DNA of 35,234 nucleotides from Promethearchaeota archaeon (GTDB taxonomy: Archaea > Asgardarchaeota > Lokiarchaeia > Sigyniarchaeales > SOKP01), in NCBI GenBank assembly GCA_048938445.1, contig JBHLME010000037.1, positions 1 through 35,234 on the forward strand, given 5' to 3'. Both the position numbers and the translations under genes were made by a program. The notes beneath the pieces are model-generated. The model saw only the letters and a list, made by a program, of their open reading frames with translations, did no database searches and was not told where the DNA came from. The first letter of the stretch is position 1. Each line of letters opens with the position of its first letter. Shown here in pieces: positions 315 to 24,733 of the stretch.

Positions 315-845
315 CTAATTTTCTTCTTGATCAGCATAATAAATTAGCCATTTTGCCATAGCTTGAAAGGATTCATTAATATTAATATCTTCTTTTGAGG
401 AACAAAAAACACATTGATTACATTTAGCTTTGTCAGCATAATCGTTAGCAACATCATTATCCACTTCATGATCTGCTAAATCCCACTTCATTCCTAAGAG
501 AATAATTGGTATGAATCCCGCTTTTTGCCTAATAATCTTTAACCATTCTGGAACTTCCTTGAAAGTTTCATAGTCAGTAAGGTCAAAACAGATAAATGCA
601 CCGCTTGCACCCTTGCAATAATCAGGTAATAACTCCCGAAAACGTTTTTCACCAGCAAAATCCCATAATTGCATTTTAACAGACTCTCCTGTATCAAGAA
701 TTTCAGATTTCGTATGAAATCCTGCACCTATAGTCATTTTATAACCTTCTTCGAATTTTCCTGTACAATAGCGAGTAATCATTGCGGTTTTACCAACACC
801 TCCCGCTCCAGCAATGACAACTTTAAAAATCCATGAACTCTGCAT
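315..845 (-). CDS. Rab-like small GTPase (Ras superfamily, Asgard eukaryotic signature protein)
   Basis: G1 GAGGVGKT, G2 YKMTIG, G3 LWDFAGE, RFRELLPDYCKGA, G4 MKWD, G5 CSSK; 176 aa with no C-terminal prenylation motif. Confidence 0.9.
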   Translation of the reverse strand: MQSSWIFKVVIAGAGGVGKTAMITRYCTGKFEEGYKMTIGAGFHTKSEILDTGESVKMQLWDFAGEKRFRELLPDYCKGASGAFICFDLTDYETFKEVPEWLKIIRQKAGFIPIILLGMKWDLADHEVDNDVANDYADKAKCNQCVFCSSKEDININESFQAMAKWLIYYADQEEN

Positions 846-1037
846 TTTAAAATTTACTTCTAATTATATTTTTATTATAATGATAATAATTATTATATCT
901 TGGTTTGGAAATTTATATTTTTTTTTTTAAACAGTAATAAAATAAAAAAGATTTTTATAAGATTTTATTCTATTATTTTTTAGTACTTGAGTTTAAATAA
1001 TATTTGATCATAATAAGAAAGGTTGTGAATATAGCCT

Positions 1038-1361
1038 ATTAAAGACGACGACATTTGTCCATTATGTAGTTTTCCAAAAGAGCTTTGTATTTGTAATAGT
1101 CTAAGTGCAGATGAACAACAAATAATAATATCTAATGATCGAAGAAAATGGGGTCGTATTGTCACGGTCATTACATTTGAGGGTAATTTTGATGCAAATC
1201 TTAAAGAAATTTTAACTGAAGCAAAAAGAAAATGTGCTTCGGGCGGAACTGTGAGAGGGAATGAAGTTGAACTTCAAGGTGATCATAAGTTTAAAATTAA
1301 AAGATTTTTAGTTGATTTAGGCTTTCCCGAAGAAAACATTACAATTAAAGAGACAATCTAA
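1038..1361 (+). CDS. sui1: Translation initiation factor aIF1/SUI1 (not in ORF track; probable ATT start)
   Basis: Manual translation: IKDDDICPLCSFPKELCICNSLSADEQQIIISNDRRKWGRIVTVITFEG...KRKCASGGTVRGNEVELQGDHKFKIKRFLVDLGFPEENITIKETI*. Has the archaeal N-terminal Zn knuckle and the SUI1 ELQGDH motif. In-frame TAG at 1032-1034. Confidence 0.92.
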   Translation: MKDDDICPLCSFPKELCICNSLSADEQQIIISNDRRKWGRIVTVITFEGNFDANLKEILTEAKRKCASGGTVRGNEVELQGDHKFKIKRFLVDLGFPEENITIKETI

Positions 1362-1443
1362 AAATTAATCCATGTTTTTATATATAAAGGTTTTTTACTG
1401 ATAATTAAATATTTATTTATCCGGATCATTAAATCATAATTCT

Positions 1444-1914: not shown

Positions 1915-3633
1915 TTAAATCCCTAGTTCTTTAATGGTTTTATTTAATTCTTCACTTACATTCACTTCTTGAAAATTATTAGCAATTAATTCATAAGAAG
2001 AATTAAAGTCGCTGTATTTTGATTTTCCTCGTATTATCAAATCTTTTCCTAAAAGCTCTGCAGATTTATTCTCCAAGAATTTATCAAAATCAGGAGTATC
2101 TTTTATCTTCAAGATTGTATTCGTATCATTTCCGATTAATTTCTCAGCAATTTCACCAATGAAAGTTGTTCTTATTGTAGCACTTTCGTCATCAATTATA
2201 AGATTAAGAATCATCCTGTGAGTTGTTGTTGTTTTTTCTTCACAAATACAATTACTAATTTTTTTAAAACAATTTTTACAGGCTTCATATAATGTAATAT
2301 TCTTAATTTCTTTAGCGATAAAGCCCTTAATTTCATAAGTACCCGTTGAATTAATTGAATTAATACTTGTATAATTACCTGAAATTTCATTCCTCGATTT
2401 ACCAACTCCATTTTCACTACTTTTTACATTATCTAATTTTAAATCAATTAATTCCAAGGAAGAATCATTTAAAAAAGAGATTTCATTTCTATTTGAAAAA
2501 TTACTATATCTTGTCATGACGTCTTTTAAAAAAATCCCCTTTCCTTTTTTTAAAATTTTTGAAAATTCTTCTGCCTTCTCACGCCATAAAGTCACTCGAA
2601 TATAGTCAGTTTCATCACTTACAACAAATCCTAATAAAGCTACTACTTCCTCGGTTTTAAGAGTGATGTTTTTTAAATTATCTATTGAGCTCACTATTCC
2701 CGTAAAAGAAACATAAGTATTTTTTTCTTTTTGTAATTGTTCTATTTTGTCAACAATTTCACTTTGAAATACATTATCTTTTTTACTCATATTAATAATT
2801 GTATTTCGACTTGCATACAAGTCAATTGATTTTTTATCAAGATTATTTAATCTTGGATTTAAACTAGAAATTGAAACGAAATCTCCCATCTTATAATTTT
2901 CTATTTTACTGGTATCTTCATTCCAGAAAGTAACTCTTATCGTACCAGTACTATCTGCTAAGACTAAAGAGCTTATCTCACCAGTCTCGCCATTACTTCT
3001 TGAGAACTGTTTTATCGGAAATTTTTGTATAATTTTTCCCTCTATCATGATCGATTTTTGATTTAAATTGATATCTTCAATTTTAGCTATCTCATCTTTT
3101 ATTTTTGGATATTTTTTATAATCTACATCTTCGGGAGCAAGTATTATCTTCCCTAATCTACCAATTTGAACTTCAATTGTATTATTCCTTCCCTCTTTTG
3201 CATAACCATTGATAATCTTAACCAATTCATTCTTATTAAAATTTTTTTCATTAAATATATTCACGTGCTCATCCCATAAGACAATTCGAATATCTCCAGT
3301 ATTATCATGTAATAAAAAAGATCCAACATATCCAATGTTCCCGTCATTTCTTTTAAAAGTGTTGATATTGTAAACGTCCTTGATTCTCCCAATTAACGTA
3401 ATGTTTTTCATTTTTGAAGTTATATCTGAAATATTTATGTCAATTTCACTTAATAATGACTTATTTTCCTCTTTGACATCAACACCTAGATCTTTTGCTA
3501 TGATAAATAAGGCACCCTCCTCAGAAATAAGTCCTTTTAGTTCATCCTTTTTTTTCTTTACTAAATCCTCAATTTCTTTTTTATTTAATCCCGTTTTTTC
3601 AATTATTTTGCTAATATATAATTCCGTTTTCAT
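1915..3633 (-). CDS. rpa1: Replication protein A large subunit (RPA1/RPA70-like, multi-OB-fold ssDNA-binding protein)
   Basis: N-terminal helical domain (GLISEEGALFIIAKDLGV), repeated OB motifs (D-x-TG-x-IR-x-xW), C-terminal OB fold with Zn finger CKNC..CIC; SD-like GGTGA upstream. Confidence 0.88.
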   Translation of the reverse strand: MKTELYISKIIEKTGLNKKEIEDLVKKKKDELKGLISEEGALFIIAKDLGVDVKEENKSLLSEIDINISDITSKMKNITLIGRIKDVYNINTFKRNDGNIGYVGSFLLHDNTGDIRIVLWDEHVNIFNEKNFNKNELVKIINGYAKEGRNNTIEVQIGRLGKIILAPEDVDYKKYPKIKDEIAKIEDINLNQKSIMIEGKIIQKFPIKQFSRSNGETGEISSLVLADSTGTIRVTFWNEDTSKIENYKMGDFVSISSLNPRLNNLDKKSIDLYASRNTIINMSKKDNVFQSEIVDKIEQLQKEKNTYVSFTGIVSSIDNLKNITLKTEEVVALLGFVVSDETDYIRVTLWREKAEEFSKILKKGKGIFLKDVMTRYSNFSNRNEISFLNDSSLELIDLKLDNVKSSENGVGKSRNEISGNYTSINSINSTGTYEIKGFIAKEIKNITLYEACKNCFKKISNCICEEKTTTTHRMILNLIIDDESATIRTTFIGEIAEKLIGNDTNTILKIKDTPDFDKFLENKSAELLGKDLIIRGKSKYSDFNSSYELIANNFQEVNVSEELNKTIKELGI

Positions 3634-11179: not shown

Positions 11180-11803
11180 TTAAAGAGAATCCTTTGATTT
11201 ATCAGCTTGAATGAAGAAAGTTTTTGGGAATTTCATTGGAAAAATAATAAATAATAGATTAATACTTACTATTATTATCAAACAGATAAATACAAGAAAC
11301 AGAGTAAAGTCATTATTCAATAAATGAATAAATGTTAGATCTAGCATAAATATAATGCTAATTGCAGCAATAAGACAATTAAGTATCGCTAATTTCCACA
11401 AGGTTAACCGTGTAGACAACTTTTTTTGAAGTTCAATAGATATATCATAACCTTTTAATTGTTCGTAATTTTTAGTTAATTTTATCTTAAAAGATGAAAG
11501 ATTTTTTCTCCTCTTTTCAATAAAAGACCTTGGTAATCTATTTAATATTTCCTTTTTAATCTGTGCAATTTTTAAATTATCTGTCTTTTTTATATCTAAA
11601 TCAGTTATGAGGTTAAAAGACATACCTTTAAACTTTTCATCGATTATCTTCTCAACTTCTTTTGCGGTTATTTCATCCATCTCAATTGCGTTTGTTCCTT
11701 TCCAGATATAACCCGCGATACCGTCAATGATAAATACGATGTCCTCTTGAAATAATTTATTAGATAGGAGTAATCCATTATTTTTTATTTTATAAAATTC
11801 CAT
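11180..11803 (-). CDS. Putative gelsolin-like domain protein with two C-terminal transmembrane helices
   Basis: N-terminal FYKI...EDIVFIIDGIAGYIWKGTNA..DEITAKEVEKII fits the gelsolin-repeat pattern (D-x-FIxD..YxWxG-x-NA plus helix); two hydrophobic segments at about aa 137-161 and 166-189. Confidence 0.55.
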   Translation of the reverse strand: MEFYKIKNNGLLLSNKLFQEDIVFIIDGIAGYIWKGTNAIEMDEITAKEVEKIIDEKFKGMSFNLITDLDIKKTDNLKIAQIKKEILNRLPRSFIEKRRKNLSSFKIKLTKNYEQLKGYDISIELQKKLSTRLTLWKLAILNCLIAAISIIFMLDLTFIHLLNNDFTLFLVFICLIIIVSINLLFIIFPMKFPKTFFIQADKSKDSL

Positions 11804-24226: not shown

Positions 24227-24640
24227 CTATTTTTCTTTTATTTCTTCCCTTGCTCCACAGGCACCACATTTTAAAAACAATTTCTTACCTTCTCTCTGTA
24301 TTTCCGTATCTGGTTTATTACATATACTGCAAAGTACATATGTTTTTGTATAATTTTCAATCAATCTATTTAAAACCTGCTCTTTATAAAGAGACTTCAT
24401 AAATAATTGCTGGCCCCTGATTTCTCCGAAAGTTCCTGCTTTCTTTAAAAAGATAGTTAAAAAATGGTTTCTATCTCTATTTAAAATGTATATTATTTTA
24501 TTAAAATTTGTAATATATGTGTTTTTACTTTCAAATCTTAATTCTACTTTAGGAATTTCGAATCTTTTTGATTTTTTAACATTATCAGGTATTTTTTCAT
24601 ATGCCTTGTCAAGTAATTTATCATAATCGTATAAATCCAT
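24227..24640 (-). CDS. eif2b: Translation initiation factor 2 beta subunit
   Basis: YDKLLDKAY, RFEIP, TNF, YVLCSICNKPDT, CGACGA. Confidence 0.95.
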   Translation of the reverse strand: MDLYDYDKLLDKAYEKIPDNVKKSKRFEIPKVELRFESKNTYITNFNKIIYILNRDRNHFLTIFLKKAGTFGEIRGQQLFMKSLYKEQVLNRLIENYTKTYVLCSICNKPDTEIQREGKKLFLKCGACGAREEIKEK

Positions 24641-24733
24641 TATTGAACAACTTTTTTTATTTTACTTGTGATATAAAACTCTTTTTAGAATTAATTTTTT
24701 ATCATTTTTTTCATGATAAACAAGTATGTTGCA

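Follow-up and report, generated by a model that had tools for sequence, protein, structure and literature searches.

How does translation begin on the gene of a presumed start-codon fidelity factor when that gene offers none of the usual start codons? The question is raised by the aIF1 (SUI1 family) gene in a 35,234-nucleotide (nt) stretch of DNA from a Promethearchaeota archaeon of the Lokiarchaeia (assembly GCA_048938445.1, contig JBHLME010000037.1, positions 1 to 35,234 of the forward strand; hereafter the window). An initial annotation had proposed that this gene starts at an AUU codon and is autoregulated through it. Our analysis indicates that an AUU start led by a Shine-Dalgarno (SD) sequence is very likely. 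The whole account, in which a functional aIF1 gene with an AUU start would limit its own expression, stands evenly balanced between holding and failing.

A complete aIF1 gene without a canonical start codon

The source genome (G000; 4.6 Mb, 256 contigs, 8% estimated contamination) contains the window as contig C131. Frame 0 from position 1023 reads TTG TGA ATA TAG CCT ATT AAA GAC GAC GAC ATT TGT, the TGT lying at 1056, and is open from CCT 1035 to the TAA at 1359-1361. The features of the gene and its start region are as follows.

1038-1361, plus strand: aIF1/SUI1 coding sequence, 107 codons and the TAA, recognised from its translation and its Pfam, NCBIfam and 4mo0 matches
1113-1328 (G000:C131), plus strand: SUI1 domain, Pfam PF01253, 60.9 bits
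1056-1094, plus strand: N-terminal zinc knuckle CPLC-x6-CIC, seen in the translation, of the archaeal CxxC...CxC type
1038-1040, plus strand: ATT, proposed near-cognate start codon, from family conservation and the NCBI models that begin there
1021-1028, plus strand: SD-like GGTTGTGA, matching GGAGGTGA at 6 of 8 positions, with two internal mismatches
1029-1037, plus strand: 9-nt spacer, non-coding, holding the in-frame TAG 1032-1034, with TGA 1026-1028 directly upstream
1025-1042, plus strand: out-of-frame GTG mini-frame GTG AAT ATA GCC TAT TAA, whose TAA overlaps ATT-AAA

The product matched Pfam SUI1 (PF01253; E 2e-16, 60.6 bits, cut-off 25.5) and NCBIfam NF002096 (107 bits, above the cut-off of 98), and scored under the cut-off with TIGR01158 (75.8 bits; cut-off 111.65). 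It also matched the solved structure of M. jannaschii aIF1, 4mo0 (102-residue chain), with an E value of 6.5e-24, residues 5-103 of the query aligning with 3-101 of the chain. Since residue 3 of 4mo0 pairs with residue 5 of the window protein, the N-terminus would be complete if ATT is the start. The zinc-knuckle residues C5, C8, C15 and C17 did not vary among 23 aligned Asgard aIF1 sequences. Judged by these comparisons, 1038-1361 is a complete, conserved aIF1. Its start-codon fidelity activity on the 30S subunit is assumed by homology; this role is known for the aIF1 of S. solfataricus and P. abyssi, as described in the relevant sections of PMC4705826 and PMC6237735.

There is no in-frame ATG, GTG or TTG ahead of the zinc knuckle, and in-frame stops occur at 1026-1028 (TGA) and 1032-1034 (TAG). 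The earliest in-frame canonical codon is GTG 1251, codon 72 of the 108-codon stop-to-stop frame and thus about two thirds through it. The initial annotation had described a complete SUI1 open reading frame (ORF) with no canonical start before the knuckle, a stop two codons before the ATT and an SD-like sequence 9 nt upstream of ATT 1038, and every detail of that description was correct. Among the unshadowed ORFs of at least 100 codons in the window, the aIF1 ORF was the sole exception to a canonical start within the first 35 codons. As 16S rRNA was not found in the source genome, the 3' ends of two relatives were used instead; these read ...GGATCACCTCC and fit the SD-like motif. In the source genome, GAGGT, GTGAA, TGTGA and GGTGA were enriched 2.7-4.1x ahead of first ATGs.

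Conservation of the start region in the Lokiarchaeial family

A scan for orthologues, with one genome per species, yielded 80 loci, mostly titled Promethearchaeota or Promethearchaeia, with protein identities of 78-88%; one was cut by a contig end, leaving 79 informative loci. From the upstream stop to the zinc knuckle, 0 of the 79 had a canonical in-frame start. All shared one architecture, GGT[T/C/A]GTGA followed by 9 nt, then ATT (76 loci) or ATC (3 loci), then AAA. The alignment of sui1 5' ends suggested in the initial annotation bears out, for this family, a conserved non-canonical codon at this position.

For codon and spacer counts the set was deduplicated to 73 unique 150-mers. The start column contained ATT in 70, ATC in 3 and ATA in none, and ATG was never seen, whereas elsewhere within their first 30 codons these genes had isoleucine codons in the numbers ATA 180, ATT 131 and ATC 16. 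This difference suggests that ATT is kept for something beyond a need for isoleucine. The second codon was AAA in 73/73, and the SD-like motif was near-invariant, while 25 variants of the spacer were present. One to three frame-0 stops fell within the four codons before ATT in all 73, and two or three in 39. The base preceding the ATT was T or C, and A preceded the codon in the three ATC loci. Over the 79 orthologous loci, the missing canonical start is evidently more than chance.

A separate search of 41 relatives gave a match in 36, and 29 loci were fetched besides the window's own contig; 20 of these 29 had no canonical in-frame start at all. As a control, aIF1A from the same 41 genomes showed a canonical in-frame start ahead of its domain in 30/30 loci, the first canonical codons being ATG (24), TTG (4) and GTG (2). 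The aIF1A and aIF2-beta genes of the source genome itself have ATG starts. In sister families of the order, the homologous column reads ATA, TTG, GTG or ATG before CCA AAA, and this series within one order marks the column as that of the start codon. Together, the sequence data point to ATT 1038 as the only plausible start, and initiation at this AUU under the lead of the SD sequence is very likely.

The unusual 5' end might still be an artefact, an error having destroyed an ATG, or the gene might be dead, with a normal aIF1 encoded elsewhere. The assembly is fragmented and partly contaminated, as given above, and contig cover is lacking over 995-1032. However, the same architecture was present in 79/79 separately deposited loci, and the orthologous proteins are 78-88% identical with knuckle and domain intact. 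A spurious A in ATAG, named in the initial annotation as a possible error for ATG, is excluded because the stop is kept in the close relatives L012 and L082, which read ATG TAG CCT ATT; the stop is therefore real. Nor was an intact ATG-initiated sui1 found elsewhere, since the genome's one further SUI1 match, on contig C95, also has no canonical start. An artefact or a dead gene is thus scarcely credible.

Public gene models of the orthologues (P0003, P0004 and P0035-P0098) treat this 5' end in different ways. Of the 16 models fetched, eight, every one an NCBI model, take the ATT codon as their start (MKDD[DE]IC) and carry the name 'stress response translation initiation inhibitor YciH'; NCBI's pipeline therefore already sets the start there, without comment. 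The JGI and other models are shortened to 65-90 residues and miss the zinc knuckle. The ENA models P0003 and P0004 begin MWKK[TS]IKD, which corresponds to TTG-TGA-AAA-AAA with TGA read as tryptophan. The prediction that gene callers would miss the gene therefore held for the ENA and JGI models, which are truncated or begin with MW, but failed for the eight NCBI models. Callers restricted to ATG, GTG and TTG truncate or lose aIF1, an essential marker, and probably tens of other genes in these genomes. Such miscalled starts affect completeness estimates, the N-termini used for expression and phylogenies.

The two ENA models would be explained if translation began at TTG 1023 and the in-frame TGA were read through or recoded as tryptophan or selenocysteine. 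In the window, however, the second stop TAG 1032-1034 follows, so that two different stops would have to be recoded, and the 39 unique orthologues with two or three stops before ATT include TAA and TAG among them. The spacer is also not conserved as protein. The MW models most likely reflect a TGA-as-tryptophan table applied to short contigs, and we give this route hardly any weight.

Initiation at GTG 1025, followed by a +1 frameshift or by reinitiation from its mini-frame, has more to recommend it. The distance from GTG to ATT is fixed, the open frame ends at the TAA overlapping ATT-AAA in 70/73 unique orthologues, and the base before the codon is T or C, with A in the three ATC loci only. 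A possible promoter element also lies upstream.

992-999, plus strand: TATA-box-like TTTAAATA, possible promoter element, read from the sequence

An archaeal TATA box lies about 26 nt before the transcription start site. The TATA-like TTTAAATA would accordingly put the transcript start near GG 1021-1022, that is, near the GTG. On the other hand, the GTG has no SD sequence at a usable distance, with GG only 2 nt upstream. The codons before the stop vary, so that no slippery sequence is conserved; the GTG frame runs on in the three ATC orthologues, and in the orthologue L014 a TAG lies inside it. No such GTG frame exists in the families with ATA or CTG starts, and re-pairing of tRNA-Tyr or tRNA-His from xAU to AUU would be expected to be poor. 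The GTG route is therefore improbable, and the SD-led AUU start is preferred.

A hairpin pairing 1020-1026 with 1031-1037, which would mask the SD sequence, was also considered. Its z score was -0.79, and 48/200 shuffled sequences folded equally well. An SD-masking hairpin is not claimed, because the z score is not significant and the hairpin-forming spacer is not conserved.

Weak aIF1 start codons in other lineages and in the paralogue

The initial annotation had described the unusual start for this archaeon. The pattern is wider, extending across Asgard families and to a few other archaea. In a survey of the phylum, 282 of 301 genomes searched had a match, and 60 loci were fetched from 26 other Asgard families. 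Thirteen of these loci, belonging to 7 of the 26 families, had no canonical start; ATA, CTG or ATT stood at SD distance instead, in many cases immediately after an in-frame stop.

Two surveys reached beyond the Asgard archaea. The first, made with an 8-sequence alignment, covered 80 loci around Bathyarchaeia, Methanomethylicia and others. A canonical start was missing from four, all titled Baldrarchaeota or Odinarchaeota, whereas all 70 loci without an Asgard name in the title had one at most 12 codons from the knuckle. The second survey added 77 loci (Hadarchaeota, Thermoplasmata, DPANN, Thermococci and Methanomethylicia), of which 5 had no canonical start: two titled Hodarchaeota/Wukongarchaeum (CTG), one labelled Hadarchaeota (GGAGGTG...CTG), and, with ATA, one labelled Aenigmatarchaeota and one unlabelled locus (GGAGGTGA AAAGAA ATA). 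Taken over the loci sampled, weak aIF1 starts are recurrent and commonest in Asgard genomes, and they are not universal.

Among canonical but weak starts, 19 loci labelled Methanomethylicia or Methanosuratincola (L263-L283) have TTG, all behind AGGTGA or GGTGA and 9 nt. The likeness to the window gene lies in the AGGTGA, the 9 nt and a weak start codon, placed there before S-E-I-C. TTG is nevertheless a canonical, if weak, archaeal start and poses no gene-calling problem, unlike the codon in the window. Loci labelled Thermococcus have a GTG start.

The only other SUI1 match in the source genome is a second aIF1 paralogue.

G000:C95:25-369, minus strand: second aIF1 paralogue (L002), 61% identical, with no canonical in-frame start (…CTT ATT AAT…)

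Its ATT is conserved. In other genera the paralogue (L024, L335, L342, L343 and L018) has a perfect GAGGTGA, 8 nt, and ATT or ATA followed by AAA; in this group the GTG of the SD sequence itself is in frame.

A proposed feedback of aIF1 on its own start codon

In the proposed mechanism, the aIF1 gene would be monocistronic and functional and would be translated from AUU 1038. The 30S subunit would be positioned by the imperfect SD sequence GGUUGUGA, 9 nt upstream, and the initiator tRNA would pair with AUU at two of three positions; we infer that the initiator tRNA decodes this AUU. Because aIF1 destabilises initiation complexes on non-AUG codons, it should limit AUU initiation on the mRNA that encodes it. 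More free aIF1 would lower this initiation and less would raise it, giving a homeostatic negative feedback. By analogy with known systems, the chances that such feedback is the function of the AUU may be put at about half. In the parts of PMC4705826 and PMC6237735 that treat the work of Hasenohrl 2009, S. solfataricus 30S subunits bind both AUG and AUU mRNAs without aIF1 and only AUG mRNAs with it.

The arrangement resembles that of infC, the IF3 gene, in that the gene of a start-codon-rejecting factor begins at a conserved AUU behind an SD sequence and that related lineages carry other weak codons at the same position. That a fidelity factor feeds back on the poor start site of its own gene is textbook knowledge for bacterial IF3 and established for eukaryotic eIF1. 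Butler reportedly found in 1987 that the AUU start of E. coli infC makes IF3 repress its own synthesis and that changing AUU to AUG abolishes this autocontrol. Of the marks of the infC type, a conserved non-canonical start behind a ribosome-binding site is present in aIF1, and the gene encodes a discriminating factor as judged by homology and the literature only. Feedback is proven for infC, whereas it is proposed by analogy for aIF1. AUU starts are also reported to be extremely rare in E. coli, whereas the source genome has several AUU-type starts. The two proteins are unrelated, as stated in the portion of PMC4705826 that compares them.

aIF1 is instead the orthologue of eIF1 (SUI1 family), with which it shares a poor start site on the fidelity factor's own gene. 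Ivanov et al. are said to have described, in 2010, autoregulation of eIF1 through a poor AUG context. The cis-feature differs: in the window it is a non-AUG codon, ATT, behind an SD sequence, with no AUG present, no scanning and no Kozak context. A third comparison is prfB, the RF2 gene, also a translation-factor gene whose short upstream frame terminates in a stop that overlaps the main frame. Unlike prfB, the window gene has no conserved slippery codon and no SD sequence 3 nt before a shift site. A prfB-like +1 frameshift was not supported among the orthologues, in which the codons before the TAA vary, the frame is stopless in the three ATC cases and a TAG comes sooner in L014.

Such feedback is known in principle from IF3 and eIF1, and no such account was found for archaea in the literature searched. 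This literature, including the text consulted of the reviews PMC7531240 and PMC6412873, with subscription journals and supplements outside the scope, described no non-AUG start or autoregulation of aIF1. A separate matter is the S. solfataricus SUI1/aIF1 gene, which an earlier listing gave as broken by a -1 frameshift and which proved full-length when re-sequenced, according to the passage on this gene in PMC8211752.

With ARAGORN, 39 tRNAs (44 with introns allowed) were detected in the source genome, with no recognisable archaeal initiator tRNA among them. Apart from this, a tight cluster of about 700 bases (G000:C215:8265-8983) holds AT-rich tRNA genes Ile(GAT), Met(CAT) and Ile(TAT). This trio is unlike the other tRNAs of the genome and possibly stems from a mobile element or contamination.

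Near-cognate starts elsewhere in the genome and the case for feedback

To weigh the feedback, the use of near-cognate starts by other genes has to be considered. A screen of the source genome for unshadowed ORFs with no canonical start in the first 40% of the frame gave 166 candidates, and both aIF1 copies were among the six longest. Pfam searches with the 20 longest other candidates revealed three apparently intact genes and three probable gene fragments. TFE-alpha (G000:C111:11713-12309, plus strand; Pfam TFIIE_alpha, E 5.6e-13) lacks any canonical start ahead of codon 157 and reads AGAGGG, 9 nt, then ATT AAA at 11728. An Lrp/AsnC regulator (G000:C214:46709-47134, minus strand), with its helix-turn-helix from residue 3-4, likewise lacks one ahead of codon 83; among its relatives (L442-L465), seven (L444-L447 and L450-L452) have ATG GAT GTx ATx GAT where it has ATC, and others have ATA, ATT or CTG in the start column. 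An RPB9-like zinc-ribbon gene (G000:C152:31-297, plus strand) has ACG at the start column before (K/R/Q)-F-C, as found in two species, the second of the same genus, while 16 other loci (L424-L441) have ATG, GTG or TTG. Among the TFE-alpha relatives (L394-L423), three sister-family loci also show ATT.

Matches to PAP2 (C111:36052-36444, minus strand), MGS-like (C94:23969-24289, plus strand) and FlpD (C4:7486-7749, plus strand) also had no canonical start. These start inside the Pfam profiles and are probably frameshifted or truncated genes rather than cases of near-cognate starts. A screen of codon usage upstream of the first canonical start was dominated by shadow ORFs, and the SUI1 ORF was outside the 40 best-scoring ones listed.

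For a genome-wide view, the stretch from the upstream stop to the first canonical codon was examined in ORFs of at least 150 codons for ATT, ATC, ATA, CTG, ACG, AAG and AGG with an SD 5-mer at 4-10 nt. The excess of such codons, given below with the other counter-evidence, was absent at three control spacings (16-22, 25-31 and downstream). These results suggest that the source genome may contain tens of unannotated near-cognate starts. Near-cognate starts in a number of genes of the lineage make the AUU start of aIF1 more credible, and for the same reason they make a weak start without feedback a serious rival.

According to this rival, AUU is the start, and near-cognate codons are ordinary weak starts, kept for a low fixed rate or tolerated under AT bias, with aIF1 as one gene among many of this sort. 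It is a real possibility, although less probable than feedback. In its favour, other genes of the genome and family have ATT, ATC, ATA, CTG or ACG at the start position, SD-associated near-cognate codons are enriched genome-wide, and an Asgard tubulin gene has 'a rare ATT start codon' (2026; PMC13394414, in its passage on this gene). The codon also tracks composition, ATT and ATA occurring at ~24-37% GC and CTG in three f12 loci at 42-56% GC; this tracking is imperfect, as CTG also occurs in two f9 loci at 30-35% GC. However, every initiating 30S subunit requires aIF1, which would make merely low output an odd target. The aIF1 codon is fixed (0/79 canonical), whereas that of TFE-alpha flips between near-cognate and canonical codons. 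ATA, the favourite of AT bias and the commonest isoleucine codon, never occupies the aIF1 start in the family, and weak aIF1 starts recur in unrelated lineages.

Several observations weigh against the proposed feedback or the evidence for it. AUU-type starts are not specific to aIF1, being found in the TFE-alpha, Lrp/AsnC and zinc-ribbon genes, and a weak start alone is therefore no proof of feedback. In 21 loci of the same family, the TFE-alpha start column reads ATT 11, ATC 2, TTG 5 and ATG 3. SD-preceded near-cognate codons numbered 112/3592 against a background of 392/18566 (odds ratio 1.69, p 1e-5). Feedback through a weak start is not universal, because many Asgard and other archaeal aIF1 genes begin with ATG. 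The 41-relative set and the 79-locus set probably overlap in genomes, and related genomes do not count as independent. The 9-nt spacer, although within the observed range, is at the long end of the SD spacing of the genome, which peaks at 4-7 nt. Sequencing runs containing the locus comprised 16 of DNA and 0 of RNA. Logan contigs of 4 runs on 900-1450 left 995-1032 uncovered, and upstream of 1037 they held relatives' versions only, as loose ends.

Set beside these points, the family-wide fixation of the weak codon, although ATG is one substitution away, argues that it may have been selected in aIF1 and not merely tolerated. The avoidance of ATA, the weak starts of both paralogues and the other weak codons of other lineages argue in the same direction. 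With a near-cognate start that is fixed family-wide and recurrent elsewhere, the question of feedback becomes directly testable. If true, the feedback would connect the mechanisms of bacteria and of eukaryotes by way of the closest relatives that eukaryotes are known to have.

A broader reading would make the poor start site of the fidelity factor an old general rule that reaches the archaeal ancestors of eukaryotes. In this reading, fixation of Asgard aIF1 genes at AUU, AUA or CUG has happened repeatedly. The level of aIF1 would then govern a translational 'stringency regulon' of near-cognate-start genes in Lokiarchaeia, from which the eIF1 feedback of eukaryotes would have descended while acquiring a new cis-signal. 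Members of such a regulon would include aIF1 and its paralogue, TFE-alpha, Lrp-type regulators and tens of others. We consider this extension unlikely.

Flanking features and neighbouring genes

Downstream of the aIF1 gene, a possible terminator was noted.

1375-1379 and 1391-1396, plus strand: two T-runs, possible archaeal terminator, read from the sequence

The gene is flanked by a divergently oriented small GTPase gene of the Ras/Roc type (315-845, minus strand; Pfam Ras, 1.2e-38) and by an RPA-like protein with several OB folds (1915-3633, minus strand). The aIF2-beta gene, with its ATG start, is located further along the window (24227-24661, minus strand).

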